This document shows positions 36,672 through 54,255 of a stretch of DNA of 64,000 nt, one piece after another (the first letter of the stretch is position 1; each line of letters begins with the position of its first letter). Made by a program: the position numbers and the translations under genes. The notes under the pieces were generated by a model that saw nothing but the letters and a program-made list of their open reading frames with translations, did no database searches and was not told where the DNA came from. The DNA is from an uncultured bacterium. Lineage in GTDB: Bacteria > Patescibacteriota > Patescibacteriia > Patescibacteriales > UBA12465. The stretch spans positions 1,352 through 65,351 of the forward strand of contig CAJAVM010000003.1 in the NCBI GenBank assembly GCA_903945435.1. Reading direction: 5' to 3'.

Positions 36672-36693
36672 GGTGTTTAAGACCGACACAAGG
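36672..36693. repeat. Candidate attL
   Basis: GTTTAAGACCGACACAAGG (36675-36693) matches 14/19 to GTTCTAGACAGACACGGGG (54237-54255). Confidence 0.55.
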
Positions 36694-36719
36694 CATTAAA
36701 CGTTAGCCAAAATACAAAG

Positions 36720-36748
36720 AAGTTCAGCTTATACTGAGCTTTTTTGTT
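36720..36748 (+). terminator. Terminator downstream of tRNA-Gln (inside the element)
   Basis: AAGTTCAG-CTTATA-CTGAGCTT followed by TTTTG. Confidence 0.7.
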
Positions 36749-36916
36749 GGAGTCAAGTGAGTGTAAACTGGTGTAAATAATGAAAAATATTGGTTCGAAT
36801 ACGAGTTCTGTCAAAATATATTTTATAAAAATGTTTCCGAAAAGTTATTGCTATATTTCAGCCATTTTTAGTATGGGCTGGCTAAGTAAAACATGCTATT
36901 ATGTCAGTGTAATAAT

Positions 36917-37699
36917 ATGCCTAATTTTAATAACTTAGATTTAAAAAATTGGAAAGATTCAGAGATTTGGACTGATAGTCTTTGGATTATTAAAGAACGT
37001 GATAAGTCGGGGAAACACGACGGTTTTTATCATGGCAATTTTGTTCCGCAAATACCTCATCAATTAATTTTAAGATATAGTAAAGAGAATGATGTAGTCT
37101 TTGATCCATTTTTAGGTAGCGGCACAACGGCATATGAATGTGAAACTTTAAAGAGACATTTTGTTGGTATAGAAATTCAACCAACATTAGTTAAACATGT
37201 GCAATCAAAACTCGATAGTAAAAAGAATTTCTTTGAGATTTTAGCGGCTGATAGCACTGAAGAAAAGACTTTTAATAAAATAGAAGAAGCTTTAAAGAAA
37301 CATAAGAGAATAAAAGTTCAATTGGCTATTTTACATCCACCATATGCTAATATTGTTAAGTTCAGTGATAATAAAAACGACTTATCTAACGCTAAAGATT
37401 TAAGACAATTTTTGAATCAATTTTCTAGTGTTGTTAAAAATACTTTGACTATTTTAGAAAAAGGGCGGTATATTGCTATAGTTATGGGCGATAAGTATGA
37501 AAAAGGCCAATGGATACCGTTGGGTTTTTATTGTATGAATGAGGCTTATAAGTTGGGTTTAACGCTAAAAAGCGTTATAATAAAGAATATGGAGGGAAAT
37601 AGGGCTAAGCAAAATAAGGAAGGAATCTGGCGTTACCGAGCTCTAACTAGCGATTATTATATTTTTAAACACGAATATATATTAATTTTCAAATATTAG
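36917..37699 (+). CDS. Amino-DNA methyltransferase (N4-C/N6-A)
   Basis: FDPFLGSGTT SAM-binding motif precedes an HPPY catalytic motif; likely start MPNFNNL at 36917. Confidence 0.85.
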   Translation: MPNFNNLDLKNWKDSEIWTDSLWIIKERDKSGKHDGFYHGNFVPQIPHQLILRYSKENDVVFDPFLGSGTTAYECETLKRHFVGIEIQPTLVKHVQSKLDSKKNFFEILAADSTEEKTFNKIEEALKKHKRIKVQLAILHPPYANIVKFSDNKNDLSNAKDLRQFLNQFSSVVKNTLTILEKGRYIAIVMGDKYEKGQWIPLGFYCMNEAYKLGLTLKSVIIKNMEGNRAKQNKEGIWRYRALTSDYYIFKHEYILIFKY

Positions 37700-37700
37700 T

Positions 37701-38381
37701 ATGACAAATAATGAATTATTTTTAGAACTTGCGAAGCCAAATAAAGATGGTGTGAGTCGCTGGGTTCCAGTTTCAGAATTTATTGGTAAATATAAAAAAC
37801 TTCAACTTGGAAATGGTGGAAGTTGGTGCCGAGCTAGTTCAAGCTTGGCAAAGAAATACATTGTCGAGTTTGATAAAAATAAAACAGCCGGTAATTCTAT
37901 TGACGGAGTTCGCTTGGCTGGTTTTAATAATAAAAAAATATTAAACCAAAATATTAGAAAAGATATAAAAGATTTTTATAAAGTACAAAACTGTGTGATG
38001 CTTGGGGTTAATGGTAAATCTGAAAATACAAAGATAGAAATAGATCACAAAGATGGTAGAAAAGAGGATCACAGACTTTCAAATTTAAAAGAACAACAAA
38101 TAACTGATTTTCAACCACTTTCAAAAGCGGCAAATGATATTAAAAGGCAAATTTGCAAAAGATGTAAGGAAACTAATAAACGTTGGAATGCAAAAAATAT
38201 TAAGGGTAATCCATTTGATTTTTATGCAGGAAATGAAAATTATTCTGAAGAATTGGGATGTAAAGGATGTTACCAATATGATCCTGTAGAATACAGGAAA
38301 GTTGTTGTTAGAAAAGTTGGTGAATTATCAGCAAAGGAAGCGGTAGATAAGGTTTTTAAAAAATTATACCCAGAAGAATAA
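37701..38381 (+). CDS. Type II HNH restriction endonuclease, NlaIII/IceA1-like (predicted CATG specificity)
   Basis: GNSID...NQNIRKDIK...SENTKIEIDHKDGRK...NDIKRQICKRC...GCKGCYQYDP closely resembles the IceA1/NlaIII family as recalled. Confidence 0.82.
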   Translation: MTNNELFLELAKPNKDGVSRWVPVSEFIGKYKKLQLGNGGSWCRASSSLAKKYIVEFDKNKTAGNSIDGVRLAGFNNKKILNQNIRKDIKDFYKVQNCVMLGVNGKSENTKIEIDHKDGRKEDHRLSNLKEQQITDFQPLSKAANDIKRQICKRCKETNKRWNAKNIKGNPFDFYAGNENYSEELGCKGCYQYDPVEYRKVVVRKVGELSAKEAVDKVFKKLYPEE

Positions 38382-38390
38382 CAATAAAAT

Positions 38391-39455
38391 ATGAATTACA
38401 TAGGCAGTAAATTATCGTTGTTAGAGTTTTTAGAAAATTCTATAAAAAAAGTAGCTAAAAAAGACTGCAATGTTTTTTGTGACTTATTTGCTGGCACAGG
38501 TATCGTCGGATCATATTTTAAAAAGAAAGGTTTTAAAATTATAGCTAACGATATCCAGTATTACAGCTACGTTTTGAATAGACATTATATTAAAAATCAT
38601 AAACCACTTGAATTTAAAGGTTTGTTTGAATTGATTGCCACTTTGAAAAGTGAGGACATTAAAAATAGGGGAGCTATTGTTTTAGATTATTTGAATAATT
38701 TAAAAGGCAAAAAGGGATTTATTTACAATAATTATTGTTTGGGTGGGACAAAAAACAAGACTGAGCAAAGACTTTATTTTTCGGATGAAAACGGTTTACG
38801 ATGTGATGCTATAAGACAAAAAATAGAAGAATGGAATAACGGCAAAAAAATTAATGAGAATGAATATTATTTTTTATTAGCCAGCTTAGTTGAATCCATT
38901 GATAAATATGCTAACACAGCTTCTGTCTATGGAGCCTTTTTAAAGAGTCTAAAAAAATCTGCTTTAAGGCCTTTAGTTATGAGCCCTGCCGAATTAATAA
39001 TTAATGACCAAGAGCATGAAGTTTACAACGAAGATATTAATTCGGTTGTTAAAAAAATAAAGGGGGATATTTTATATCTTGATCCGCCATATAACCAAAG
39101 GCAATACGCCACGAATTATCATATATTGGAAACAATCGCTAAATATGATAGCCCTGATATTCATGGTAAAACTGGTTTAAGAGAGTATCAAAAACAGAAA
39201 TCTTCCTATTGTTCAACAAATCAGGTTAAAAAATCTTTTAAAGATTTAATCACTAATGCTGACGTTAAATATATATTTTTAAGTTACAATAATGAAGGAT
39301 TAATGAGTGCAGAAGATATAAAAGAAATAATGAGCACTAGGGGTAAATATGGATTTTTTACTCAGGAATATTCTAGATTTAAAGCAGATAAAAATAGGGA
39401 ATATAAAGCTGAAAAAACAGTAGAATATTTACATTATGTTGTCTGCAATAACTAA
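38391..39455 (+). CDS. Adenine DNA methyltransferase, M.NlaIII/M.HpyI-like
   Basis: MNYIGSK start, DLFAGTG, YLDPPYNQRQY and GKTGLR; adjacent to the NlaIII-like REase. Confidence 0.88.
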   Translation: MNYIGSKLSLLEFLENSIKKVAKKDCNVFCDLFAGTGIVGSYFKKKGFKIIANDIQYYSYVLNRHYIKNHKPLEFKGLFELIATLKSEDIKNRGAIVLDYLNNLKGKKGFIYNNYCLGGTKNKTEQRLYFSDENGLRCDAIRQKIEEWNNGKKINENEYYFLLASLVESIDKYANTASVYGAFLKSLKKSALRPLVMSPAELIINDQEHEVYNEDINSVVKKIKGDILYLDPPYNQRQYATNYHILETIAKYDSPDIHGKTGLREYQKQKSSYCSTNQVKKSFKDLITNADVKYIFLSYNNEGLMSAEDIKEIMSTRGKYGFFTQEYSRFKADKNREYKAEKTVEYLHYVVCNN

Positions 39456-40074
39456 CCATATCGATTCGATAGCGACTTCAGCCGTGACAGCTGTATTAGT
39501 CTTTTTTATCACTAGTCGTATAGATAATAAGTTAAGAGAAAAAAATAATAAACATGAGTTTATAAGAAATCGTGAGTATGATACCCATGAAAATGTTTAT
39601 GAAGAAATTCAAAAGCTAAAAAATGACCCAGAAACAGGCTGGGCTTTTCGTTCTAGTAAAAAAGAAAAATTAGAAGAGCAAAATAATTTAAGTTTTTCTG
39701 AGTTCTGTAATGTCACCAAGAAAATTGAATTTCATAATTTAAATATTGATGGAGCTGAATCTTATATTTTAGACATTATAAAAGATAAAATTATATCTGA
39801 TATAAAAAAGTTATCTCGTCGTAGTAAAAATAAAATTCAGCAAATTTCTAAGGAAATAATTATTAAATATGAAAATGATTTTGAAGTAATTAATTCCGAG
39901 GTAGATGATTTAGTGGAGGGCTTTGGTTATTATGAAGGTAAAAAATTGTCTTTTGATGAGAGTAATTATGTTAGTTATTGTAAGACGCAAAGAGAAATAG
40001 TTCTATTAAATTATTTAGCTCCATTATTAAATAAACTTGAAATTGAACTTTCTGATTATATTAATTTAAAGTAA
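39436..40074 (+). CDS. Hypothetical cargo protein with an N-terminal TM helix
   Basis: 212-aa ORF overlapping the MTase stop; hydrophobic segment SAVTAVLVFFI. Confidence 0.55.
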   Translation: MLSAITNHIDSIATSAVTAVLVFFITSRIDNKLREKNNKHEFIRNREYDTHENVYEEIQKLKNDPETGWAFRSSKKEKLEEQNNLSFSEFCNVTKKIEFHNLNIDGAESYILDIIKDKIISDIKKLSRRSKNKIQQISKEIIIKYENDFEVINSEVDDLVEGFGYYEGKKLSFDESNYVSYCKTQREIVLLNYLAPLLNKLEIELSDYINLK

Positions 40075-41413
40075 TCTTTTTTTCTCTCATAACCAGTTTA
40101 CTCTCTAAACAGCTTAATACTTCTCGCTTCTCAATAATCGACCCCTCTCTAAGCACGTATTTAGCGTAGTTTCTCATATCAACATCTTTCTGCTTATTAA
40201 AGTCTATTTCAGCTGTTCCGAGCAAGCCTTTACTGAATTTGTAGTATCTTTCAATTTCTTCATTGAATTGGTTTTTTAAGCCGATGTCATTTATATCTAG
40301 CTTATCAATTACTTGAGTTAATTGTTCAATTAATTCTTCTTCTCGAAGATAACCGCCTTTGCAGTTTATATTTTTAGCTCTAGAACATCCGTAATATACA
40401 TATCTTCTAACTGACCCATCGGCCAGTTTTTTAAATTTTTCTTCAGCCGAAATGCCTGATCCGCAATGTCCGCATTTGATAAGCTTGGTAAAGGCAAATT
40501 CCTTACAGTCTTGTCTAGAAATATTACCTCGGCTTAATTGCTCATTCGCTTTCGTATATAACTCTTTTGATATAATCGGATCGTATCCGCCTTTATACCA
40601 TTTATCGCTTCCAACTGGATATTCAAATTCGCCATAGTAGAATGGTTCTTTTATCATCCGCTGAACCATACTGATTGTCATGAACTTATTATTTTTTGTC
40701 CGCAAATCAGTTTCATCTTTTAGCCATCTATATATGCGCCGACAGCTATATTGCTCATTGGCTACTTTTTCAAATAATTGTTTTATTATTGGAGCTCTTT
40801 TAGGATCTATAAATACTTTTTTAGCGCCTTTGTCCGCATATTTATCATGTATGTATCCAATCGGCGCTCGCCCAGGACGCCAACCTTGTTCGCACTTAGC
40901 CCTTAATCCTCGTTTAACATTTTCGCCCTTATGGTCATTTTCTAATTTAGCTTGAGAACCTAGAATCATTAATAAAAATTTTTCATTAGGGCTGTTAGTA
41001 AATCTTTGGCCATGAGTTCTAATTTCTTTAATTAACCCCTGATCCATTAAATCAACCATCGCCCCTAAGTCGCCAGCATTACGGCTTAACCGATCAGGCG
41101 CCCAGCAGAGGATTCCATTAAAGATACCTCTTTTGATATCTGTAATTAATTTATTAAAAACTGGCCTCTGTCCAGAATCTTTAGCGGAATGACTTTCCTT
41201 TCTTACCTCAGTTATTTGAATATTATCCCTTATGGCCATTTCCAGCATTTCCTTTATTTGCGAGTCTATTGAAAGAGCCTGCCTTTCATCTTCTTCGGTT
41301 GATTTTCTGGCGTATAAACAGTATTTCATCTCTGTTTCTAATGCCTCTAAATTAGCCCTATTTTGGCCTCCTAGGGCTGTTTTATGCTCTAGTACCGTAG
41401 TTGCTTGGTTCAT
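40061..41413 (-). CDS. Large serine recombinase (resolvase, recombinase and Zn-ribbon domains)
   Basis: YARKST (catalytic Ser), DRLSRN, G.APIGY and CGHCG...YYGC. Confidence 0.93.
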   Translation of the reverse strand: MNQATTVLEHKTALGGQNRANLEALETEMKYCLYARKSTEEDERQALSIDSQIKEMLEMAIRDNIQITEVRKESHSAKDSGQRPVFNKLITDIKRGIFNGILCWAPDRLSRNAGDLGAMVDLMDQGLIKEIRTHGQRFTNSPNEKFLLMILGSQAKLENDHKGENVKRGLRAKCEQGWRPGRAPIGYIHDKYADKGAKKVFIDPKRAPIIKQLFEKVANEQYSCRRIYRWLKDETDLRTKNNKFMTISMVQRMIKEPFYYGEFEYPVGSDKWYKGGYDPIISKELYTKANEQLSRGNISRQDCKEFAFTKLIKCGHCGSGISAEEKFKKLADGSVRRYVYYGCSRAKNINCKGGYLREEELIEQLTQVIDKLDINDIGLKNQFNEEIERYYKFSKGLLGTAEIDFNKQKDVDMRNYAKYVLREGSIIEKREVLSCLESKLVMREKKITLN

Positions 41414-41488
41414 ATGGTTATAGTTGTTATAACCAATTAATGACGCTATTAAACAGGGAAGTCTAGGCCTAGCTGTTGGTAACTTAAC

Positions 41489-41517
41489 TTTACTTTTTGG
41501 CTATTTCAAGTTATATT
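41489..41517 (+). promoter_or_regulatory. sigma70-like promoter positioned at the 5' end of the structured RNA
   Basis: TTTACT-N17-TATATT; predicted +1 about 41523-41524 coincides with the first helix. Confidence 0.55.
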
Positions 41518-41522
41518 TTAAG

Positions 41523-41697
41523 TGCAAAACCACAAGTTAATATCGTGAAGCACGCGCCAATTTTTTTGGTAGCCTTGGCTTATTCGTATACAGGAACGGG
41601 CATTCCGACCTAATACGAGTAAGCGTCTTCACGGACACTTCTTGTGGTTTTGCAACCAAGGTCGGGTGTCCGTTTTTGTTTTTATAAAGCGGACATT
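41523..41697 (+). ncRNA. Unannotated highly structured RNA or leader with alternative pairings
   Basis: Perfect 14-bp helix 41523-41536/41641-41654; helices 41544-41550/41627-41633 and 41578-41589/41613-41624; G-U pairs fit only the + strand. Confidence 0.7.
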
Positions 41698-41711
41698 AGA
41701 TATTTATAAAT

Positions 41712-42147
41712 TAATTATAAATTTATGAAAAAATGTCCGTTTTGCGCCGAAGAAATACAAGACGATGCTAAAAAATGCCGTCATTGCGGAGAATATCTTG
41801 ATAAAGATAATAAAATTAAGGTAAGTAAGCATTCTGATTATGCTACGGTCACAATTATTTCCGCCATATTGCCCGTTATAGGCATTATTTTAGGAATTGT
41901 TTATCTCACTAAAAATAGCAAGGCAGATAAAAAATTAGGCGAACACGCAATTGTTGGCAGTATTTTATTTAGTATATTGTGGTTTCTAATTTTGTTAGTA
42001 TTAGGAATCCCTAATTTTATAGTTATTTAATATTAGTTTTATTAGCAGTCAGCTAATTATAAATTTATGAAAAAATGTCCATTTTGTGCAGAAGAAATTC
42101 AAGATGACGCAAAAAAATGCCGTCATTGCGGGGAGTATCTTGATAAG
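41712..42147 (+). repeat. Direct repeat of the translation-start region plus zinc-ribbon codons (41712-41805 and 42054-42147)
   Basis: 13 identical upstream nt and 27 codons differing only at 10 synonymous positions. Confidence 0.85.
41725..42030 (+). CDS. Zinc-ribbon membrane protein 1 (2 TM)
   Basis: CPFC-x10-CRHC N-terminus; two hydrophobic helices. Confidence 0.8.
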   Translation: MKKCPFCAEEIQDDAKKCRHCGEYLDKDNKIKVSKHSDYATVTIISAILPVIGIILGIVYLTKNSKADKKLGEHAIVGSILFSILWFLILLVLGIPNFIVI

Positions 42148-42477
42148 GGTAATGTTTCTAATAAAATCAACAAAGACGGTAGATTTGATGGATTCATTGA
42201 TTTCTTAAAACGAAAATATCCCGCTTATTCCGTCGTGTCTGAAAATTATGAAAAAAATTATATAGTGCTTAACAAACAGTTAAGCGGTTTAAATCCTTTG
42301 CTGTTTATTATATTACTTCTTCTTTGGATTCTGCCAGGCGTTATATATCTTATCGTGTCTTTAAGTAGTAAAAAAATATTATCATTGACCATACAATTTA
42401 ATGAAAACAATGAGCCAGTTTCTGTTAGCGACGCGAATTTCAATTTTTTAATTGTTAAATATAAAGAGAATAATTAA
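42067..42477 (+). CDS. Zinc-ribbon membrane protein 2
   Basis: Same 27-aa N-terminus as gene 41725; different C-terminus with LLLLWILPGVIY. Confidence 0.8.
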   Translation: MKKCPFCAEEIQDDAKKCRHCGEYLDKGNVSNKINKDGRFDGFIDFLKRKYPAYSVVSENYEKNYIVLNKQLSGLNPLLFIILLLLWILPGVIYLIVSLSSKKILSLTIQFNENNEPVSVSDANFNFLIVKYKENN

Positions 42478-42488
42478 TAGTGAGTAAT

Positions 42489-43949
42489 TTATCTCATCCC
42501 GTAGTACTCTTTATTGTGTTCCCAAATTCCAAAAGATGCAGGCCTTCTTTTATCTAAAATAATTTCATTTATCAGTAGGGTAAAAGCATCGACGAGATCA
42601 TCGTGTTTTTCTATGCCGAAGCCGACCATTTGACTTATTAATTCTTCAGCGCCATTTTTAGGAAATAGTATTCTTCCTGATTTTATTAAATATGTTGTCA
42701 TACTTAGCCTAGACAATTTATCATATCCGCCAATTTTAACGCCTTTGCTCGGGTACCCATCGCTTTTTAATTGCTGGGTGAAGGCACTTTGATAAGCCAC
42801 TTCTTCAACTAATATTTCTATTGGCTTGCCTCCTCCTATAACACTTGATGATAGTTTAATGTTCTCTATTGCTTCGGGAAATTCCATCCTTTTATTTATT
42901 AAATTGGGCAAAATATAAATTTTCATATCTTTGTCATATCCATACACCCTTGCACTTACCGCCGCCGTATAATCTGCGGTGGTTTTTGTTGATATAGCTA
43001 AATCAACGCCCATTTTTTCATAGCGATAATTATCTGGCGGAAGGGAATCATAGTACTGTAGCCATTCTTCACGGACAACTTGATCTTCGGCTGGTAATAT
43101 CTTCAGCATGAATTCTCGGTTGAAAGTGACCGCATCATAAGTATTTTTTAAATCTTCAATACTCTCATAAGTCGGGTATCTGCTAGGCCAGAGAACAACC
43201 CCATCTTCATTTATAAGCGGGTATGCTTTATAAACACCACCTCTGATTTTATTATCATTTATTTTTGCTTCCAGTCTTTTAATAACTGAGTCTTGGTGTA
43301 AGAGATTTCCAATTACAACAACAACTGTGTTCATATCTCCAGCTGGCAAAACTTCGCCCATTAGCCAATTAAATGATTTATCCCGCCCCTCCTTAGTTTT
43401 AACTGATTGAAGGTCTTCAATATCGTCGACAACAATTAAGTCTGGGCGGTATTGATTGTGTCTGGTTCCTCTAACGCTCTGTTCGACTGAAGCAGTTGCT
43501 ATTCTGGCATTGAATTTTGTCAGCACTAAAGTTTGTGAACCCCATTGATTAGGTTCTTCTTTGAATGGTCCCAGATCGCCTTTAAGTAATTGATTCTTTT
43601 CTAATTCACTCTTTATGCTTTGGAGCATGGTTTGTGCCTTTGCTTGGGTCTGGCTGATAAGAAGAACGTATTTCTTTTCAAGCTTACCCATAATCGCCCA
43701 GAGAGGATAAGAAAGACCCATGATAGTTGATTTGGCTGATCCTCTAAAAGCAACCACAACCATCATCTTATTTTTTGTGTCTTCAGTCAGACTAAACATT
43801 TCTCTTTGAAACATTGCTGTTTCCACTGTCACATAATGATTCATGTAAAGATAGAAAAACCAGTAATGACTTTCCTTAACAGTGGCCAAGCGAACCAGCC
43901 TATCGGTTAACAATTTATTAATTATTTTTTCAGTCGTTAGCTTTTTCAT
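42489..43949 (-). CDS. Phage terminase large subunit
   Basis: Walker A AFRGSAKST, Walker B LIVVDD, nuclease motifs GVDLA..DYTA and HDDLVDA. Confidence 0.9.
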   Translation of the reverse strand: MKKLTTEKIINKLLTDRLVRLATVKESHYWFFYLYMNHYVTVETAMFQREMFSLTEDTKNKMMVVVAFRGSAKSTIMGLSYPLWAIMGKLEKKYVLLISQTQAKAQTMLQSIKSELEKNQLLKGDLGPFKEEPNQWGSQTLVLTKFNARIATASVEQSVRGTRHNQYRPDLIVVDDIEDLQSVKTKEGRDKSFNWLMGEVLPAGDMNTVVVVIGNLLHQDSVIKRLEAKINDNKIRGGVYKAYPLINEDGVVLWPSRYPTYESIEDLKNTYDAVTFNREFMLKILPAEDQVVREEWLQYYDSLPPDNYRYEKMGVDLAISTKTTADYTAAVSARVYGYDKDMKIYILPNLINKRMEFPEAIENIKLSSSVIGGGKPIEILVEEVAYQSAFTQQLKSDGYPSKGVKIGGYDKLSRLSMTTYLIKSGRILFPKNGAEELISQMVGFGIEKHDDLVDAFTLLINEIILDKRRPASFGIWEHNKEYYGMR

Positions 43950-44344
43950 ATATTTTTATCAAGAGCTGCTAGTTTGAGTGCTTGCTTTACGGCTTGTTTC
44001 TGCTCTTTAGTTAATTCAAGAGTATGTTCAATTTTTCCTTTTAACTCCAGTTTGTCAGCATAAACAGGGTGATTATTTCTTAACCAAAAAAAGATAGCTT
44101 GCATGCTTTTATCCTTGATGCCTGATATCAGCTGTGATTCGGCGATGTCATTTATAAATAAGCGCCCCTCAAGGAAAGCTTTATCAACTTGCTCGGAAAA
44201 CTTTTTATCTTCCTTTTTCCAGCGATAGAAGGTTGTTCTGCCAATGCCGTTTTTTTCACAAACCAGCTGGATAATAGGAGTTTTTCTCAAGCCCTCAATT
44301 ATCAGTGCCTTGCCACTATTTTTTGCTTTTGTTTCTTTGTCCAT
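43946..44344 (-). CDS. Putative terminase small subunit (HTH protein)
   Basis: HTH (CEKNGIGRTTFYRWKKED) and AIFFWLRN; overlaps the TerL start by 4 bp. Confidence 0.7.
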   Translation of the reverse strand: MDKETKAKNSGKALIIEGLRKTPIIQLVCEKNGIGRTTFYRWKKEDKKFSEQVDKAFLEGRLFINDIAESQLISGIKDKSMQAIFFWLRNNHPVYADKLELKGKIEHTLELTKEQKQAVKQALKLAALDKNI

Positions 44345-44349
44345 ATTAT

Positions 44350-45129
44350 TTAATTTAATTTTTTAGCTTTTAATCCAGTTAACTTTTCAAATCTTTCTAT
44401 AATTGTCTGGCAATATTCTGGATCTAGTTCTATCATTAAGCATTTTCTTTTTGTTTGTTCGCAACTGAGTAAAGTCGTTCCCGATCCCCCAAAGGGATCA
44501 TATACATAATCACCTATCTTAGAACTGTTTAATATCAGTTGACGCATTAATGATAAAGGTTTTTGCGTAGGATGACTTTTGCTACTACTCGGTTTAGGAC
44601 AGAAGATTACACTCTTGTCTTTTGACTTAGTAAATAGATGTGTGCCGAACCATGAAAAAATTATGAGCTCGTGCTGAGGCAGATAATCTTTGCGCCCAAC
44701 TACGGCCTGATTTTTTACCCAAATTAGAAGTTGTGAAAAATGGATACCTATTTCATCCATTGCTTGTTTTAAAGCAAATAGCATGATGTCGCTATTAAAA
44801 ATGTAGATGGAATTTTTCTTATCCAGAAAGGGAAGTGCTAATGAAAGCCAACTTTTGGTAAATGTTTTATATTCATCATTGCTTTGAATCTGGTCATTAG
44901 CAATTTCTTTTGGCTTACTTAATTTTTGGGCAAATCCCGCTTTTGATTGGCAATACGCGCAACCATATGGTGGGTCGCAAGCAATTAGCCTGATTATGTC
45001 TTGGCCGATAAGTTTTGTAACGCTTTCTTGATCGCAGGCGTCTGAGCACATCAGCCTATGATTTCCCAGCTGATAAATTTCACCTGTCTTAATTAAGTTT
45101 TTTAGCTTTTGTGTTTGCATATTTTTCAT
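44350..45129 (-). CDS. Phage-type adenine DNA methyltransferase (beta class)
   Basis: DPPY, HPTQKP and YDPFGGSGTT; start likely at 45129 or 45120. Confidence 0.88.
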   Translation of the reverse strand: MKNMQTQKLKNLIKTGEIYQLGNHRLMCSDACDQESVTKLIGQDIIRLIACDPPYGCAYCQSKAGFAQKLSKPKEIANDQIQSNDEYKTFTKSWLSLALPFLDKKNSIYIFNSDIMLFALKQAMDEIGIHFSQLLIWVKNQAVVGRKDYLPQHELIIFSWFGTHLFTKSKDKSVIFCPKPSSSKSHPTQKPLSLMRQLILNSSKIGDYVYDPFGGSGTTLLSCEQTKRKCLMIELDPEYCQTIIERFEKLTGLKAKKLN

Positions 45130-46363
45130 AGCGATTAATAATAAGTTGGCAGAAAATTGGATTGATTTCCGCCGTGTAACATATTCTGTTAAGCTGTTCA
45201 CACGCTAGAAGAGTCGACCCCGATCCAGCGTAGATGTCTAATATAATATCGCCAGGCTTAGAACAGCGTTTTAAAGGCTTCTCGTGGAGATTTAAAGGTT
45301 TTTGTGCCGAGTGTTCGTAGTTTGATCCAATATCTCTTTTAGCTAGCCAGATATCTAAAATATCAATTATATTATCTATTGCCCTATTGCCTGATTCTAT
45401 TTCTTTGTTTAAAGCTTCACAGGCTTTAGTTGATAGTTTGGATAGGAACGGCTTGCCAGTTTTTCCGTATATACAAAATTCGGTCGCCTTATTAAATGCG
45501 ACATTAGGCGTAGGATTGAACGCACCCTTGAACCAGAAGCAGGCTCTTTCGTTCTTTATGCTTAGTTCTCGGTATAGAGTTTGGATTAACCAGATATTTG
45601 ATTGATCGCACCAAGTGAAGTAATGGCAATTTTCCTTTGCGTGTTTTAAAGAATTTTTTAGTCCAGCTAATAGAAATTTTTTATATTCATCATCGGTTTT
45701 ATTATCTTTAATATCTCCGCCGTAATTTGAACGATTACCGACCCCTTTATCATAATTTAGCCCAATATTAAAAATTGGATCATTATAGATTAGGTCGGCT
45801 TTGTTTTCTCCAAGTAATTTGTCCAGTGTTTCTGTTTTGTGGCTATCTCCACAAATCAAAAAGTGCTTGCCTAGCTGGAAGATGTCACCTAACTTTATGT
45901 CAGTCTTATTTATTTTCTGCAATTCCTTTTCTTCATTAAAATTATCATTCTCAATTTCAATGTCATTATCAAAAACCTGAAGTAAATCATCTTCATTTAA
46001 TCCAGATTCAAGTAAGATATCTAAATCTATTTCCTTGAGAAGCGAATAATTCCATGATCCATGATTAGAGTTGCTTCGAAGTAAATATTCCTTGAATTCT
46101 TTTTCATCTAGCTGACGGTTAGGAACTCTAACGTCTATTTCTTCTTCGCCTCTGTCCAGTAATTGCAAAACACGGATTCTTTGATGGCCAGCTAGAATCT
46201 GACCGCTTATTGTTATGGCAGGTATCTCGGCGAGATTGAATTTTTTAATACTGGCTTTAAGATCACTTAATTGTTTATCCGACATGATGCGCGGATTTTT
46301 TTCGTAGGGAAGCAGGTCGTTGACTTTCCGCTTCTCTGTGTGCCAAATGATTTGTTTGGTCAT
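45089..46363 (-). CDS. ParB/Srx-like domain fused to a DNA methyltransferase
   Basis: LLPYEKNPR...ILAGHQR (ParB-N); DPIF catalytic-motif variant; HSAQKP; DIYAGSGST. Confidence 0.87.
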   Translation of the reverse strand: MTKQIIWHTEKRKVNDLLPYEKNPRIMSDKQLSDLKASIKKFNLAEIPAITISGQILAGHQRIRVLQLLDRGEEEIDVRVPNRQLDEKEFKEYLLRSNSNHGSWNYSLLKEIDLDILLESGLNEDDLLQVFDNDIEIENDNFNEEKELQKINKTDIKLGDIFQLGKHFLICGDSHKTETLDKLLGENKADLIYNDPIFNIGLNYDKGVGNRSNYGGDIKDNKTDDEYKKFLLAGLKNSLKHAKENCHYFTWCDQSNIWLIQTLYRELSIKNERACFWFKGAFNPTPNVAFNKATEFCIYGKTGKPFLSKLSTKACEALNKEIESGNRAIDNIIDILDIWLAKRDIGSNYEHSAQKPLNLHEKPLKRCSKPGDIILDIYAGSGSTLLACEQLNRICYTAEINPIFCQLIINRYEKYANTKAKKLN

Positions 46364-46440
46364 AATTTTTTTGTTAATAAATTATGTCTTAATTGTATGA
46401 GTTATCTGAGGGGCAGGACATTACACTTTGTGTAAACAAA

Positions 46441-46467
46441 AAAAATCGCTATTTTTTAGCGATTTTT
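46441..46467. terminator. Hairpin terminator downstream of gene 46488..47243
   Basis: AAAAATCGCTA/TAGCGATTTTT inverted repeat with flanking A/T tracts. Confidence 0.6.
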
Positions 46468-46487
46468 AGGAACTATTTTGTATTAAA

Positions 46488-47243
46488 TTATAATTTTTTT
46501 AGATTATTTAGAGCATCTTTATACCTTTTTCTATAAATTGCTACCTCACTGTATCCCAAGGCAACTCGGTTTTTACCGTATTTATCGTTTAATTCTTTGG
46601 AAATTTTTTTATCCCCCTTTTTTATTTTAGTTAAATCCCAGGTATCTTTGGCTACGGTTTGAGGCTTCTTAACTTTGTTATTTTTTCCATCTTTTATTAT
46701 CTCGGTTATTTTTTTACATGCCATAGCTATATCTCGGCTGGTTGTGTGAGGAAAAATTTCTAGATATATTTTTCCCGGGGTAAAAGTGTACTTATTTATT
46801 TCTGGGTTTTCGTTAGCAATAATAATTCGTGTTCCAGGAATCTTCTTTCTGGTAAGCCCAGATTTTAGTTTTATTCCTTCTTTTGAAAATTCAGGCAATA
46901 AGTAAGTAATTAGATTTTTATTTATTATATAATCAGCTGTAAAAAATACACAGTTAGAAATTAGATTATTCGGTATTTTAAATTTACTTATTAGTTTTTT
47001 TGAATTCAAAAATAAGATTCTGTGATTCTTGCTATTTGCATGTTCCCAATCAAAAGACAGTTGGTTATTATTAAAGCCTTCTTTTGGAATATTAAGATTG
47101 GTTCTTATCCTCCCAACTTCTTTAATAAAGAAAGGATGGTCTAATAACAAGGAATAAAGCCATGACTCATCTCTAGATAAATCATCTCCGTTTGGAAAAG
47201 TGTATATATTGCTATTTTCTATTTTTTGGTTATTTATACTCAT
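46488..47243 (-). CDS. Basic hypothetical protein, possible C-terminal HTH regulator
   Basis: Lys-rich; C-terminal KKISKELNDKY...LGYSEVAIYRKRY looks like an HTH. Confidence 0.6.
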   Translation of the reverse strand: MSINNQKIENSNIYTFPNGDDLSRDESWLYSLLLDHPFFIKEVGRIRTNLNIPKEGFNNNQLSFDWEHANSKNHRILFLNSKKLISKFKIPNNLISNCVFFTADYIINKNLITYLLPEFSKEGIKLKSGLTRKKIPGTRIIIANENPEINKYTFTPGKIYLEIFPHTTSRDIAMACKKITEIIKDGKNNKVKKPQTVAKDTWDLTKIKKGDKKISKELNDKYGKNRVALGYSEVAIYRKRYKDALNNLKKL

Positions 47244-47402
47244 ATATTGTTATTTTATCATTATTAGCCATTTTTAGGTAGTTTACTATGATTTATTAAT
47301 ATAATATTAGTAAACGAGATAGCTTAACCTTAGCAAAAAATACCTTGATTTTGCTTGTTTTTAGGAGTAAAGTCTAAATATAATTATAAAAGAAGCAAAA
47401 AT

Positions 47403-50231
47403 ATGATTCAACAAAAATTTCCAAGAGGCTCGGAGTGGAGAAAATGGGATTTGCACGTGCATACTCCAGCTTCATTTTTTTGGGTAGGAGGCAAAAAATT
47501 AAAGGATTTATCTGATGAAATTAAGGAAGGCCATGTTGAATCAGAAAAAGATGAAGAAATAAAAAAATTCATAAAAGCCGTTAATGAATCGGACGTAGCA
47601 GTTTTTTGTATAATGGATTATTGGACGTTTGATTGGTATATAGAGCTAAAAAAATATTTACTAAGGCACCCAGGAGAATTGAACAAAACCATTTTTCCTG
47701 GTATGGAGTTGCGTGTTGAATGCCCAGTTGACTATAGACTCAATATTCATTTTATTTTGTCAGATAAATTAACTGAACAGAATTTAAATGATTTTAAGTC
47801 AGAATTAATGATAAGATCAGTTAACAGAAAATTGTCGGAGGAGGCCTTAATTGCTTCTGCAAAAATGCTAGACGCCAGTAAGGCTGCGGTGCATGGATAT
47901 GGAGACCCGTCTGTTTTGTCCGATGAAAAGTTATTAGAATTAGGTTCTAAAACGGTAGAAATAACAAAAGATTCTTTAAATACAGCATTAAAAAATATTC
48001 CGCCAGAGTCAGGCTATATTATTTTACCATATGATACCTCCGATGGACTTATTGATTTGGATTGGAAAACTCATCCACACGATGATAATTATTTCATGCA
48101 AACGGCTAGTATTATTGAAACTAGAAAAGCGGATAATGTAGATTTGTTCAATTGTTTGAAAACTGAAGCAAATAAAGATTTTTTTATTAATTTTAGTAAG
48201 ACTATTAAAAATACACCAAAACCATGTGTTTCTGGAAGTGATGCCCATGAGTATAAAAATTATGGAAAATATCCATCTGATAAAATTACATGGGTTAAGG
48301 CTGACCCAACATTTGAAGGTTTAAAACAAATAATATATGAGCCAGTAGATAGGGTTAAAATTCAAGAGTCTAGACCGGAAGAAAAAGATGATTACCAAGT
48401 TATAGATAAAATAAATTTTATAGACAATAAGTTTTTGCCAGACGATATATTAATAAATGAAAACTTAACAACGATTATCGGAGGTAAGTCTACTGGAAAG
48501 TCAGTTTTATTAAGAAATATAGCTAAAACTATTGACCCCGAAGAAGTTAAAACAAGACTTGGAGAGGTTGGCTTATCTGAATACGAAAAAGATGTAGAAG
48601 GATTCAAGGTTATTTGGAAAGATGGGCAGGAAAATGTTAAAAATGAAGATAAAGGAGTTAGAAAAAAAATTATTTATATACCGCAATCATATCTCAACAG
48701 ACTGGTAGATAAAAAAGAAGATAAAACATCTATAGACGAAATAATCAGAAATGTTCTACAACAGGATGATGAGGTAAGCAAAGCATTTGAGGAATTGAAA
48801 GAGTTTGAAAGAAATAATGAAAAAGAAATTTCTAAAAATGTGGATGATCTTTTTTACTCCAAAAAAGATTTTGCTGAACAATCTGAACTTATCAAAAATA
48901 TTGGCGACAAAAGGGGTATTTCTGAACAAATAAAAAGATTAGAGGTAGAAATTAAGGATTTGAAGGAAAAGGCTGGCATGACCCCCGATCAGATTTCTAA
49001 TTATAATTTATTAACGGAGAAAATAGGCAAAATAAAAAAGGAGAAGGAAGTAATTAACAACGATTTAATTTATTTAGATGCATTATCAAAAACAGATCCA
49101 TTCTTATTTATAGACTTTGAAGGGATTTCGTTGGAAATTAAAAATGGAATTTCCACTGATTTTGATAAATTAAAAATGGAATTTATTATTTCATGGCAGG
49201 CTCGTATTAGTGTAAGTGTAGGCAAACTTAACGAGGATTTAATCACAAAGGAATTAGAATTAATATCGGCTACAGATGAGTTAAATCCGTTATTAGAAAA
49301 AGCTAGAGAGAGTCGTGCATTAAATGAAAAAATTTCTAGATTAGATGGCGAAAAAAGTAAACTTAACACAATAGAAAAAGAAGAGTTGAAGCTAGAAAAA
49401 ATTAGACAAAATTATTTTAAATCGTTGTCTAATATGTCCGAATTGCACTTGGAATTTTATAATAAATATTTTGACAGTAGGGCTAAAATATTGAAACAGA
49501 CTATCATAGATGGAGAGATAACTTTTGATTTAAACGTTTCTTTCAGAAGTTTGTATTTTCAGAAAAATATTAATGAAATATTTGACCAAAGAAAATTGTC
49601 TAAATTTACCGATGTTAATATATTAGATTATTCATATTCTGATAATATTAATTTAAAACAGGACATAAGCAAAGTTATTTCTGGAATTTTATCTGAAAAG
49701 TTAGTCTTGAAAAGTGGCTATTCAAAAAAGGATGCAATAAATAAGATGTTACAGAATTGGTTTTCTTTAGATTATGCTATTAAGCAGAATGATGACGATA
49801 TTTCACAGATGTCTCCAGGAAAGAAGTCATTTGTTTTATTGAAATTATTAATAGAGCTTGATAAAAGCAAGTGCCCTATATTGTTAGACCAGCCAGAAGA
49901 CGATTTGGATAACAGATCTATATATAATGATTTAGTTAGGTTTATAAAAGATAAGAAGAAAGGAAGGCAAATTATTATAGCAACGCATAATCCGAATTTG
50001 GTTATTGGTGCGGATGCTGAAAATATTATTGTTGCCAACCAAAGTGGTGAAAAGACCCCAAACAAAACTTTTCAATTTGAGTATGTCACAGGCTCTATTG
50101 AGGATTCTTTTGAAAATAGTGGAGAAACAGCAATTTTATATCAGAAAGGTATTCAAGAACACGCCTGTGATATATTAGAAGGCGGTGAAGATGCCTTTAA
50201 GAAGCGAAAGCGACAATATAGTTTTAATTAA
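47403..50231 (+). CDS. PHP phosphoesterase fused to an ABC/SMC-like ATPase (TrlF / Ppl-like defence protein)
   Basis: WRKWDLHVHTP and SDAH (PHP); GGKSTGKS, coiled coil, MSPGKK, LLDQPEDDLD and ATHN; likely ATG at 47403. Confidence 0.88.
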   Translation: MIQQKFPRGSEWRKWDLHVHTPASFFWVGGKKLKDLSDEIKEGHVESEKDEEIKKFIKAVNESDVAVFCIMDYWTFDWYIELKKYLLRHPGELNKTIFPGMELRVECPVDYRLNIHFILSDKLTEQNLNDFKSELMIRSVNRKLSEEALIASAKMLDASKAAVHGYGDPSVLSDEKLLELGSKTVEITKDSLNTALKNIPPESGYIILPYDTSDGLIDLDWKTHPHDDNYFMQTASIIETRKADNVDLFNCLKTEANKDFFINFSKTIKNTPKPCVSGSDAHEYKNYGKYPSDKITWVKADPTFEGLKQIIYEPVDRVKIQESRPEEKDDYQVIDKINFIDNKFLPDDILINENLTTIIGGKSTGKSVLLRNIAKTIDPEEVKTRLGEVGLSEYEKDVEGFKVIWKDGQENVKNEDKGVRKKIIYIPQSYLNRLVDKKEDKTSIDEIIRNVLQQDDEVSKAFEELKEFERNNEKEISKNVDDLFYSKKDFAEQSELIKNIGDKRGISEQIKRLEVEIKDLKEKAGMTPDQISNYNLLTEKIGKIKKEKEVINNDLIYLDALSKTDPFLFIDFEGISLEIKNGISTDFDKLKMEFIISWQARISVSVGKLNEDLITKELELISATDELNPLLEKARESRALNEKISRLDGEKSKLNTIEKEELKLEKIRQNYFKSLSNMSELHLEFYNKYFDSRAKILKQTIIDGEITFDLNVSFRSLYFQKNINEIFDQRKLSKFTDVNILDYSYSDNINLKQDISKVISGILSEKLVLKSGYSKKDAINKMLQNWFSLDYAIKQNDDDISQMSPGKKSFVLLKLLIELDKSKCPILLDQPEDDLDNRSIYNDLVRFIKDKKKGRQIIIATHNPNLVIGADAENIIVANQSGEKTPNKTFQFEYVTGSIEDSFENSGETAILYQKGIQEHACDILEGGEDAFKKRKRQYSFN

Positions 50232-50256
50232 TTTATAAATTGGCAAAATTAATAGT

Positions 50257-51012
50257 ATGTTTAATATTCAAAATATTATAAATTTTATACCAATTGCTGT
50301 AATTATTTCAGCTATTGTTTTTTTAGTAAAATTCTTTGGAAAAGCGAGCACCGATCAGGTTCCGTTTGCTGATAATAGATCTTGGCATGAAGAATTATTT
50401 GGAATTGAATTTTTTGCCACCAGACTTGCATCTCCTTTAATATTCATATTTATTTTATATTCACGTCACTGGAATCCGCTGAAATTTACATCGGATGATT
50501 TATGGCTTTTTATTTTTGGAATTATTTCGGTAGTCATGCTTAACTTAGCTTCAAAAAATGCATTTAAATTTTTTAAAGATGATAACTTTGACGACGGGAA
50601 TCTTTTATCACTTTTAAAAAAGTTATATAAAAATAAAAATGATGAAAAGTTTGAACAAGGAGAAAATTTGTTAATTCTAAAACACCTTGTTTTCCCAGTA
50701 GTCGCTTATTTTATGATGGTGATGCTCATTCTTTTTTATGAATGGGGATCTTATTACCATTTATTAATTGCAATAATTTATTTCTTATTTTTTCTCTTAT
50801 CGTTTGCCCTTTTATTATCATTAAAAAAACGGAATATATTAAAGGCTAATATAAAATTTATCAACAATGAGGAAGAAGAAATAAAAGATTGCAGGGTCTT
50901 AAGGATAAATGAAGATAATATCAAAGTTAAAATTACAAATAATAAAGTTATAATTTTAAATAAGTCCACTGTTTCGAGGATAGAATTTGTTAATAATAAT
51001 TTGGAAAACTAA
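50257..51012 (+). CDS. Multi-pass membrane hypothetical protein with a small beta-rich C-terminal domain
   Basis: About 5 hydrophobic helices followed by RVLRINEDNIKV...VIILNKSTVSRIE. Confidence 0.7.
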   Translation: MFNIQNIINFIPIAVIISAIVFLVKFFGKASTDQVPFADNRSWHEELFGIEFFATRLASPLIFIFILYSRHWNPLKFTSDDLWLFIFGIISVVMLNLASKNAFKFFKDDNFDDGNLLSLLKKLYKNKNDEKFEQGENLLILKHLVFPVVAYFMMVMLILFYEWGSYYHLLIAIIYFLFFLLSFALLLSLKKRNILKANIKFINNEEEEIKDCRVLRINEDNIKVKITNNKVIILNKSTVSRIEFVNNNLEN

Positions 51013-51016
51013 ATTT

Positions 51017-51571
51017 ATGGGCATAGCTTATAAAAATTTTTGGAGTTTAAATACCGACGAAGCCGTTGTGGCTGGTATTTTAAGAAATGCCACCAGCAAA
51101 GATGTGGAAGTGTTAATGCCGTTAAATGCCCAAATGAAAGGAGTCGATCTTTACCTGTTAAATATTAAGACTAAAAATATTATAACTATTCAAGTAAAGG
51201 GAAGCAGGGCGTATGAACCACAGAAGGCTGAAGTCAAAAAATATGGTGACGGTTCAGGCGGTTGGTTTTTCTTTCCAAAAGAAGTAGTAACTAATGCGAC
51301 AGCAGATTTTTTCTGTTTTTTGATTTACATACTTGAAGAAAACGGAAAAACAGGAAGAAGAATTATTACGCCACATACATTAATGATCCCGACGCAAGTT
51401 TTAAAAGAAAAAAGTTTAAAATATAAAAAAACCCATGGGGATGGCCGCTTTAGTTATAAGATTTGGGTTAACCCATCAGACAAAAAGGCTTTTGATTTTA
51501 GAGATGAAAAAATTGATTTCGATGATTTTTTGGATAAAAAAGGTTTTGCTGTGATTAATAAAGAATTATAA
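51017..51571 (+). CDS. PD-(D/E)xK family nuclease-like protein
   Basis: E...GVDL...IQVKGS catalytic pattern; likely ATG at 51017. Confidence 0.7.
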   Translation: MGIAYKNFWSLNTDEAVVAGILRNATSKDVEVLMPLNAQMKGVDLYLLNIKTKNIITIQVKGSRAYEPQKAEVKKYGDGSGGWFFFPKEVVTNATADFFCFLIYILEENGKTGRRIITPHTLMIPTQVLKEKSLKYKKTHGDGRFSYKIWVNPSDKKAFDFRDEKIDFDDFLDKKGFAVINKEL

Positions 51572-51585
51572 ATATTTTTCTTGGT

Positions 51586-52719
51586 ATGATTGAAGAATTT
51601 TTTAAAAAAGATCCAATTGAAAAAGTTGAAAGAGAACTGAGATTTTTGGTGTGGGATATCCTTTCTCAGAAATACGGTGAAGGCTGGATTTATAATGAGG
51701 AAATTATTTGCAAACAAAAATGGGCAGATGAATTAAAAAAAGTTTTTGAAAAAGATAAAAAAATACAACATAACGATAATATTCGTGAATTGTTGATTTC
51801 ATATGCCGATTTTTTTGACATAAAAAAGCTTATAAAGAAAAATCGATCATTATTTGAATCTGTTTTTTCTAATTTTGAAGTTATTGTCGGCTATATTGAA
51901 ACTATTATTGGTCTTCGTAATGCAATTAAACATCATCGCGATATCTCATTAAATCAGCAACATCTTTTAATAGGAATATGCGGAGAAATAATTGATGCAA
52001 TTAACCTCTGGAGAATAGGATCAAAAATAGAATTAGATCGAATCGTTTTGTCTTTTAATGATTATATTGCGACTGAGGGGAAAAGTGAAACGCAAATTTT
52101 GTCGGAGGCAATTGAAAAAATAAATGAAATTCAAAATATTTTTTTGCATTCTTTAAAAAGTAATAGTATTGAGATTTTTAATACGAATAATAGTAGTGAT
52201 TTTGAAACCGTAATTAATACTCAGTATATTAAAATTGAGATAAGAACAAATAATAAAATCACTCCTGACAGTAAAATAGACAATATAGAATATAAGACTA
52301 TTCATAGTCGCTTGAGCTACAAAGCTGAATGCCCAGTGTCCCTAGACTTGATAATGGCAAATACAAATAAAACCTATCGGGTTATAGAGTATCTATTAAA
52401 AGGATTTATAGATATTAATCGTTTGAAAGAATGGTCTGAAAGACAGGCGGGGCTAACTCCTGGATCAAGCGTTGCCACGAACGGATCTTTTGATAGTATT
52501 GATTATGGTTTTTTGGGTGGAAAAATTAGAGTTCAGGCGGGGAAGCATGTGAATGAATTAAATGAAATTTGCGGAAAATTATCTTTATTGAATAATATTA
52601 ATGCTGAAAAATGGAATCCGCATTCAAATATAACGCCTAATGATTTAATAGGATTTATGCTTGGTAATATTTCTTCAAGAACTATCATGAATCTTTACAG
52701 AGAATCATTAGGTAAATAA
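51586..52719 (+). CDS. Swt1-like HEPN domain protein (predicted RNase)
   Basis: VERELR...YG..W...YADF.DI..LI...LRNAIKH (RxxxxH motif). Confidence 0.72.
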   Translation: MIEEFFKKDPIEKVERELRFLVWDILSQKYGEGWIYNEEIICKQKWADELKKVFEKDKKIQHNDNIRELLISYADFFDIKKLIKKNRSLFESVFSNFEVIVGYIETIIGLRNAIKHHRDISLNQQHLLIGICGEIIDAINLWRIGSKIELDRIVLSFNDYIATEGKSETQILSEAIEKINEIQNIFLHSLKSNSIEIFNTNNSSDFETVINTQYIKIEIRTNNKITPDSKIDNIEYKTIHSRLSYKAECPVSLDLIMANTNKTYRVIEYLLKGFIDINRLKEWSERQAGLTPGSSVATNGSFDSIDYGFLGGKIRVQAGKHVNELNEICGKLSLLNNINAEKWNPHSNITPNDLIGFMLGNISSRTIMNLYRESLGK

Positions 52720-52723
52720 AAAA

Positions 52724-53716
52724 ATGTCTGGATACGATCAAACAATAAAAATAAAAGTAAAATTTCAAGAAGACACTAAAAAGTTTTTAAAATTTTTAAA
52801 TTCTGTTGGCAAAAAGTACAAACGACCAACAATAATAAATTATAGATATCTTGGAAGGGGCAGATTCAATCTTATAGTTGATGGTGGCCCTGGTGGAATA
52901 GATGCTTTATTTCAAGAATTAGTGCTTAACAAGGGGTTGTATTATTACGGTTGCACTTTAAATAATAAAAAAGATATTATTTCCAATGTCATCCTTCCCG
53001 TATTTAGGCAGTTAATAGATAGGAGATTCGAAAATTCTCAGTCAAGATTTTTAAGAAAACATATACTAGGAAAATCTGCTCAGACAGAATTTGTCCCTTC
53101 TAATGCCACTGGTCGATTTAGTTATTTAATGGAAATCATATATAGAAAATGGGATATCGGAATTATAACAAATAAAGATTATATAATAGAAATTGATGGG
53201 GTTTTAAATAGTTTTTTAATGAATAAACTCGGATATAAAGAGGGCGATAGGAGTCCGAAATTCGATAGACTATTATCTAGTTTTAAAAAATCATTTTTAA
53301 TAAATGATATGCAGGGAGTCTTTCATGATGTTCATAAAATGAAAACGGAAGTATATCATAGACTTAGTGATATTAAAACAAAGGACAAATTGGAATTTAT
53401 ATCTAATAACTTGTTAAGCTATTTTAATTATTTTGATGAATTTGAGGCATCACAAAAAATAAAAACGATTAAGATTAGAGGAAAGAGGTATAGGAGAATA
53501 AAATATGGTTATGAAAAATGTGTGGATAGTAACGGACTTCCTTATCTGAATGACGATGGGACTCCAATTGACTGGGTAAAAATATCAAGCGAAAAAGATT
53601 GTCATGATTGCGGGGTGAAAAGAGGCCAGTATCACGTTGAGGGTTGTGATGCTGAGGTTTGTCCGAAGTGCGGAGGGCAATATATTAGTTTTGATTGCGG
53701 ATTGCCAACTTATTAA
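52724..53716 (+). CDS. Hypothetical protein with a C-terminal Cys/His zinc-binding cluster
   Basis: CHDCG...H..GCD.E.CPKCGGQ...DC. Confidence 0.7.
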   Translation: MSGYDQTIKIKVKFQEDTKKFLKFLNSVGKKYKRPTIINYRYLGRGRFNLIVDGGPGGIDALFQELVLNKGLYYYGCTLNNKKDIISNVILPVFRQLIDRRFENSQSRFLRKHILGKSAQTEFVPSNATGRFSYLMEIIYRKWDIGIITNKDYIIEIDGVLNSFLMNKLGYKEGDRSPKFDRLLSSFKKSFLINDMQGVFHDVHKMKTEVYHRLSDIKTKDKLEFISNNLLSYFNYFDEFEASQKIKTIKIRGKRYRRIKYGYEKCVDSNGLPYLNDDGTPIDWVKISSEKDCHDCGVKRGQYHVEGCDAEVCPKCGGQYISFDCGLPTY

Positions 53717-53746
53717 AAATACCGCCTTCGACCTAGGCGGTATTTT
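53716..53746. terminator. Bidirectional terminator
   Basis: AAAATACCGCCT/AGGCGGTATTTT. Confidence 0.8.
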
Positions 53747-53824
53747 GTATAAAAAATCCTAAATTATTTTGCCCCGTATCGCTTGCATTTTTACATTTTG
53801 ACAAACAAAATAAAATAGAATTAT

Positions 53825-54034
53825 TTATCTTCGATGTTGTATCTGATCAACTCTATTTTCCTTTAGATAATTAATAATATCTTCTTCGGAAAAACGGAGA
53901 ACACCATTTATCTTGTAGAAGGGAATTTTTCTTCCTTCGACAATGCGATAGGCGGTAGTCTGGGATATGTTAAATATTTGACCAAGATCTTTAATTGATA
54001 GGAGTTTTAAATTTTTTAGAGACATGTCATTCAT
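53825..54034 (-). CDS. Excisionase-like helix-turn-helix protein (HTH_17)
   Basis: LLSIKDLGQIFNISQTTAYRIV..RKIPFYKING.LRF. Confidence 0.82.
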   Translation of the reverse strand: MNDMSLKNLKLLSIKDLGQIFNISQTTAYRIVEGRKIPFYKINGVLRFSEEDIINYLKENRVDQIQHRR

Positions 54035-54231
54035 ATCCTCTATTTTACTATAAAATTAAATAATTTAGAATATTGTTCCTTGTGCTATTATTTGTTGGTT
54101 TAGTCAAATGGAACACGGGAAAATGCCCCTTGTGGTGTGCCATTTGTTCCATTTACCCACTAAATACCCGACCGACTGCCGTTATTTCGCCCCAATATAT
54201 ATCTTCAAAAAACCTTTGAAAATTGCTATAT

Positions 54232-54255
54232 CCTTGGTTCTAGACAGACACGGGG
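54232..54255. repeat. Candidate attR
   Basis: Similar to 36675-36693; lies immediately before the host bidirectional terminator. Confidence 0.55.

Follow-up and report, generated by a model that had tools for sequence, protein, structure and literature searches.

The systems closest to the locus treated here are the large serine integrases of phages and the ssrA islands of Dehalococcoides. For the phage enzymes, the available portion of PMC3783163 places the attB motifs 5 bp nearer the centre than the attP motifs, at positions 11-19, and describes an LI integrase without its coiled coil that excises all four site pairs tested and gives no intermolecular integration. The ssrA islands, as set out in an excerpt of PMC3146451, target the transfer-messenger RNA (tmRNA) gene and are described with a reported cut at mid T-loop, a 20-bp repeat, a dsiB gene overlapping attL and a second recombinase, DsiA. 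An extract of the Islander paper (PMC4383910) states that serine integrases are not known to target tRNA genes. The window analysed here, a 64,000-nucleotide (nt) stretch of contig CAJAVM010000003.1 (positions 1,352 to 65,351), comes from a genome of 0.98 Mb of the Patescibacteria (candidate phyla radiation, CPR) type; between a tRNA-Gln and a deacetylase gene it holds restriction-modification cargo, a large serine recombinase, TerL, TerS, two methyltransferases, defence-like cargo and an HTH_17 protein. This span is probably a 17,599-bp integrative element, put by its own large serine recombinase into the extreme 3' end of the tRNA-Gln gene. Within this explanation, which is drawn from sequence comparison, the boundary at the core GAGC (36656-36659 and 54255-54258) is nearly certain and the attribution of the insertion to the recombinase at 40061..41413 is very likely; by the same comparison the target is the last four bases of the tRNA gene and not the adjoining spacer.

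The target is tRNA-Gln(CTG), at 36588..36661 on the forward strand, whose T-arm and 3' acceptor strand would act as the B arm; the attL core (36656..36659, forward strand; tRNA nt 71-74), with the crossover dinucleotide inside it, is placed from the left-end module and the family comparison. With 36656-36760 as the query, matches at E<=0.01 were returned from 22 of the 68 other genomes of the genus. The 28 loci comprised the window itself, one duplicate, five chance matches and 21 copies of one module beginning at GAGC (GAGT in one of the 21), upstream of which stand tRNA-Gln(CTG), tRNA-Gln(TTG), tRNA-Asn, non-tRNA junctions or the end of a contig. Since a single module starts at GAGC in 21 loci, the 21 nt that the initial annotation had called host spacer (36660-36680) are element DNA; they open the putative P' arm (36660..36760, forward strand), in which a GACC motif is conserved some 21 nt away from the core. 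Judged by these alignments, the left end restores tRNA nt 73-74, here finishes the CCA by supplying its final CA, and brings along a terminator-like hairpin for the tRNA (36714..36750, forward strand; z -4.6), whose position is kept in related left ends.

Among 38 distinct tRNA-Gln genes in the fetched loci, 16 were flagged as carrying the left module; in most of the others the core is followed by an A-run and hairpin or by another cassette. Empty tRNA-Gln genes occur in three relatives (G006, G008 and G013), and in such an empty site the displaced two-way host terminator now found at 54259..54303 would abut the tRNA. This hairpin folds in both directions (z -8.3 and -6.2); a terminator scan returned no sites in either hairpin region (36714-36750 and 54259-54303). 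In G013, the lysyl-tRNA synthetase (LysRS) gene, the empty tRNA-Gln and 6.5 kb of other genes are followed by five genes in the same order as those after the deacetylase in the window (55445 onward); in G008 the tRNA is likewise empty and the LysRS end is 97% identical. In three relatives the deacetylase is found on the other side, some 55 kb away, which raised the possibility that a chromosomal inversion had brought a Gln left end together with an Asn right end; this was rejected, the GDSL-to-oxidoreductase genes following tRNA-Gln in G013 as they do here. Two further contigs of the element's genome (G000 C16:1-400 and C11:60-220) repeat the tRNA-Gln(TTG) 3' end and terminator with a palindromic spacer of about 140 nt, and a similar repeat follows tRNA-Gln in G006.

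The right end was searched in metagenomes with a motif lying 92 nt inside it, in a pattern that did not contain GAGC. This motif (54167-54187), whose distance to the end of the core is constant at 92 nt, belongs to a conserved sub-terminal module (54125..54235, forward strand), and in all 18 metagenome loci that it matched GAGC stood at the predicted offset, that of the attR core at 54255..54258 (forward strand). Five of these loci are sister copies, identical at 84-91 of the 92 end nucleotides and at all 23 positions of the arm with its core; their flanks match the window at only 14-23 of the next 50 positions, and three of the flanks match, at 47-49 of 50 nt, the sequence that directly follows tRNA-Gln in other genomes. 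These three serve as empty-site controls, and the change of flank directly after the core sets the boundary at 54258/54259. The right arm is identical to an element at tRNA-Asn at 20 of 23 positions and to the local tRNA-Gln at 12 of 23, and is therefore not a displaced host fragment. Across 30 distinct right arms, the equivalents of G53, T54, T55, C56, A58 and C61 are kept in 23-29, so that the putative P arm (54236..54254, forward strand) is an element-borne T-loop mimic at tRNA spacing. A search of the genus with 54200-54300 returned noise only. Two inner sequences recur in relatives and are possible accessory binding sites. One is a second T-loop-like GGTTCGAAT (36792-36800), some 135 nt in from the left end; the other, a second GACCGAC (54170-54176), lies some 85 nt in from the right end.

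The family set comprises 31 stretches whose recombinase is at least 49% identical; both ends were located in 18, and the other 13 are without a right end in the fetched DNA. As the elements were found through the recombinase, the recovery of both ends in 18 of the 31 links the enzyme to the element at the level of sequence. The complete elements measure 10.4-26.4 kb and all 18 have tRNA nt 71-74 in common at both ends, the shared sequence being exactly 4 bp in ten, 5-6 bp in four, 8-10 bp in two (in at least one of which the left end of a next element follows) and 21-23 bp in two. The core varies with the target: GAGC at Gln and Asn, CCGC in seven elements at Ser, and CAGC in one at a tRNA-Gln(TTG) ending in CAGC. 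By these alignments, the family uses Gln, Asn and Ser tRNAs, its right-end core matches the target and its members stack in arrays. TerL is present in 10 of the 18 complete elements, TerS in 14, a ParB-methyltransferase-like gene in 16 and a counterpart of the HTH_17 gene in three; a crude motif scan of the 18 gave one open reading frame (ORF), itself a serine-recombinase homologue, and the one tyrosine recombinase of the element's genome lies on another contig. Cassettes of 1.2-4 kb that do not match the recombinase share the same GAGC junctions and are stacked, integron-like, behind tRNA-Gln or tRNA-Asn at five loci (L026, L027, L029, L092 and L282, from G019, G003, G014, G079 and G088), some of them with an arm 5 nt longer. 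At L032 5900-6200 (G070) and at L284/L285 (G086), the target tRNA-Asn, missed by ARAGORN, is interrupted by an insert whose end lies immediately before the 3' side of the anticodon loop, which we take, from its familiar pattern, to be probably a group I intron.

The recombinase (40061..41413, reverse strand; 450 aa) carries the Resolvase, Recombinase and zinc-ribbon domains (PF00239, PF07508 and PF13408) by which large serine recombinases are recognised. Ser38 (in YARKS), PDRLSR and four zinc cysteines show little or no variation across 38 homologues, and on this evidence the catalytic domain is intact. The predicted structure matches the SPbeta, Bxb1, phiC31 and LI integrases, best of all that of SPbeta (E 1.5e-18). 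From the last zinc cysteine to the EKR motif there are 73-77 aa in 109 of 120 parsed homologues and about 137 in SPbeta (counted in the alignment); compared with long CPR cousins about 62 columns are missing, together with their conserved coiled-coil tip, and the model leaves about 33 residues, at medium confidence, between the flanking helices of this region. The full antiparallel coiled coil of unidirectional phage-type integrases is thus, by alignment and model, not found: about 60 aa, most of the coiled coil, are missing. At least 8000 proteins match the recombinase at E<=1e-60, the long cousins included, and many of the titled records with relatives are from Patescibacteria; of 399 phage records, the 15 listed include no best hit that exceeds 28% identity. 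Two recombinase loci were present in viral_contigs, where the end motifs gave 0 matches. The element's genome encodes three other large serine recombinases (C13, C21 and C22); a long coiled-coil-like segment is retained by the two whose C-termini were read. The recombinase frames of C21 and C22 end, as that of DsiB is described to do, in what resembles the 3' end of a tRNA on the opposite strand.

A mechanism may be proposed from these features. Taking nt 71-72 as the centre of the site would bring positions 11-19 onto the T-loop (tRNA nt 53-61), which the recombinase would read as its zinc-domain site. The cut would lie at nt 71-72 or 72-73: nucleotide 72 covaries with the target, and since exchange needs identity at the cut, this covariation suggests that the cut includes it. 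A right end that might have pointed to the cut dinucleotide was not found in G047. A central GC with a clean 5-bp shift was dropped as unproven, given that the spacing varies and position 72 covaries. Set against an attP whose zinc-domain motif lies 5 bp further out on both arms, the P arm follows the spacing of the tRNA in 30 distinct arms and the P' spacing is 19-22 nt, the binding sites being putative. Unidirectional phage-type integrases pair attP with attB alone and require a directionality factor for excision; of the 18 complete elements, three have the HTH_17 gene. With the P arm at tRNA spacing, attR would resemble attB and attL would resemble attP, so that the usual 5-bp geometry alone could not lock the product; an attB-like P arm and a missing coiled coil together predict two-way activity and other help for synapsis. 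The enzyme with its shortened coiled coil would then probably work both ways, with synapsis probably aided by the conserved ends of about 100 bp or by a partner protein, and the chances that one-way behaviour has been lost are about even. From gene content, the excised circle would probably ride in borrowed phage capsids by means of its own terminase. The broader proposal can only be tentative: a widespread CPR clade of serine recombinases without the coiled-coil lock may read the T-loop, use the last four bases of several tRNAs ending in G73-C74 and carry an attB-mimicking P arm, so that every product stays a substrate and integron-like arrays of defence cassettes behind tRNA genes can be reshuffled, and are moved from cell to cell by a capsid-less terminase module.

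Other boundaries and other modes of insertion have to be weighed. The initial annotation had placed the crossover at a GA dinucleotide (36681-36682 and 54243-54244) in the spacer 3' of the tRNA; the letters and coordinates are right, with 9 of 10 bases shared, 7 of the outer 9 pairs (7 of 11) at the junction are symmetric in a partial palindrome, and the element-borne replacement terminator and the bidirectional terminator do fold as it described. A 9/10 match is nevertheless at chance level, as dinucleotide shuffling reaches it 73 times in 1000 with 54x54 nt and 174 times in 1000 with 100x100 nt; at equivalent positions in 13 relatives only 3-8 of 10 bases agree, four further elements have no equivalent motif, and left ends show no conservation of the palindrome's CAAGG half. 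Both supposed host halves are element-borne, 36660-36680 being a conserved element end and 54245-54254 identical at 10 of 10 positions in six copies with differing flanks, and those of the sister copies change at 54259, not at 54245. The predicted empty site follows none of the 38 distinct tRNA-Gln genes (70 nt each, inspected by eye), and boundaries in the other genomes checked differ from the GA sites, the outcome against which the annotation had itself staked its claim; this placement keeps practically no probability. A reading modelled on the proposal for the ssrA islands sets the crossover in the T-arm and makes the element the source of the tRNA 3' end and the right arm a displaced, decayed host fragment; it would account for right arms that copy tRNA-Asn or tRNA-Gln 3' ends (G070, G074, L354 and L362-L368) and for L360 and L365, one right-end lineage with differing arms. 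It is highly improbable here, as the arm matches its own tRNA at 12 of 23 positions but five sister copies with other flanks, three of these flanks being sequence that follows tRNA-Gln, at 23 of 23, and one left module stands behind several different tRNA 3' strands.

With the same boundaries, labour could also be divided, the short recombinase only excising in a resolvase-like manner while integration of the circle falls to a long coiled-coil cousin elsewhere in the host. The excision-only behaviour of the truncated LI integrase (PMC3783163, in the portion cited above), the long coiled-coil-like segments of two of the three other large serine recombinases in the genome and the junctions with a 5-nt longer arm that meet the same GAGC in the same arrays all favour this; arm and core sequences, however, track sub-clades of the short recombinase (GAGC and CCGC types), as expected if the short enzyme reads them, and one predicted helix of the coiled-coil region remains in the model, which leaves the division unlikely. 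A decayed, immobile prophage remnant whose ends no longer work would fit the lack of identified capsid, tail or replication genes and of any circle seen, and is given very little probability, the core genes being intact and sister copies (84-91 of 92 end bases) having different flanks and different cargo. Several observations count against insertion by the element's own recombinase at nt 71-74. Thirteen of the 18 right ends of the complete elements were located by eye or by patterns needing the core or its GC, the ends free of such bias being the five found by homology alone and the 18 from metagenomes; the spread of the P' spacing (19-22 nt) loosens the geometric argument; and the model of the recombinase has a predicted template modelling score (pTM) of 0.41 and a predicted local distance difference test score (pLDDT) of 66-82 in its C-terminal region, a single-sequence fold of the C-terminal 149 aa, at a pLDDT of 44, being uninformative. 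In 8 of the 18 metagenome right ends (two of them near duplicates) and 2 of the 18 complete elements, the arm reproduces 15-23 nt of a tRNA 3' end, and cutting at nt 71-74 leaves this unexplained; imprecise excision at shared T-loop sequence, or a sub-lineage cutting in the T-arm, could account for it. Neither an excised circle, an empty site nor a joint across the element was seen in Logan contigs of four runs from one study, contigs that drop rare forms; a loose end at 36659 in one of them (X1) matches the genome's other tRNA-Gln, TTG, and a deacetylase-based metagenome scan for a same-species empty allele gave no relative.

The left cargo (36893..40074, forward strand) comprises a type II methyltransferase, an IceA-family endonuclease, a D12 adenine methyltransferase and a hypothetical protein. 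Beyond the recombinase lie two zinc-ribbon membrane-type ORFs whose first 100 nt are duplicated in common (41725..42477, forward strand) and the core operon (42489..47243, reverse strand) encoding a hypothetical protein, a ParB-methyltransferase, a methyltransferase, TerS and TerL. The right cargo (47355..53716, forward strand) is defence-like, with a Ppl-like ATPase, a HEPN-like protein and three unknowns, one of them a membrane protein; sister copies hold other cargo across much of this five-gene block. An excisionase-like HTH_17 protein (53825..54034, reverse strand), optional in the family, precedes the right end. Capsid, portal and tail genes were not identified among the element's proteins (Pfam, PHROG), so that it is not classed as a prophage; neither database matched a tyrosine integrase or a primase, helicase or other replication gene, five proteins being without assignment. 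Upstream of the recombinase, 41560-41705 (reverse strand) is a structured non-coding stretch (z -4.8) with no Rfam match; the tRNA was the sole Rfam match here, and no LOOT RNA was found.

The initial annotation had proposed a complete recombinase and att set potentially usable as a new integrase tool. The integrated element, its intact large serine recombinase gene, the absence of a long tRNA duplication and the element's own terminator stand; the att sites had to be moved. One-way, tool-like use is doubtful, because the coiled coil is shortened by about 60 residues and the T-loop of the tRNA is mimicked in the right arm with the spacing of attB. With the corrected sites an assay becomes possible that would have failed with GA-centred ones, and a natural enzyme family without most of the coiled coil offers a direct test of the need for this motif in integration and directionality. 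The T-loop is near-universal, and an enzyme that reads it could insert at the ends of tRNAs and leave them intact, but may not be one-way. Islander-type finders assume a tyrosine integrase and a displaced tRNA fragment, and would thus miss serine elements with a 4-bp core at tRNA ends, of which one genus (68 other genomes) yields 21 left ends. No published account of the element or its recombinase family was found in the literature searched, which did not extend to supplements; sites of this kind may be listed in the supplements of Durrant et al. (PMC10083194) and in those of the tycheposon preprint. The main text of PMC10083194, in the form retrieved, has 0 occurrences of 'tRNA'.

In comparison with the phage large serine integrases (SPbeta, LI/A118, Bxb1 and phiC31), the element shares the catalytic, recombinase and zinc-ribbon domains and a short core without a long duplication, and differs in a coiled-coil region about 60 aa shorter than that of SPbeta, in the attB-type spacing of its P arm and in its tRNA 3'-end target. 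SCCmec, set beside it by description and not by sequence, likewise has a 3'-end target and tandem cassettes, and is a two-gene system with a protein-coding target. Its CcrA/CcrB recombinases are alike in relaxed site pairing, attP x attP being noted in the portion of PMC3783163 at hand. The Dehalococcoides ssrA islands, in the excerpted account (PMC3146451), are alike in a reverse-strand serine recombinase facing a tRNA-like gene, ParB and methylase neighbours, tandem arrays and the lack of transfer genes, whereas here the target is tRNA-Gln, the core is 4 bp, a single recombinase lies 3.4 kb inside and TerS and TerL are present. Islands with tRNA-targeted tyrosine integrases, tycheposons and phage-inducible chromosomal islands (PICIs) share the tRNA target, the newest element next to the tRNA, defence cargo, a terminase subunit and an excisionase-like HTH protein (10.1101/2020.12.28.424599, in part); where tycheposons and PICIs are defined by a tyrosine integrase, a primase/helicase replication module and packaging into the capsids of helper phages, both TerS and TerL are present here and neither a primase nor a helicase was identified. 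The element resembles a phage serine integrase in its chemistry, the Dehalococcoides ssrA islands and tRNA islands in its placement and stacking and perhaps a phage satellite in its transport, departing from each of these named families in a feature that defines it.

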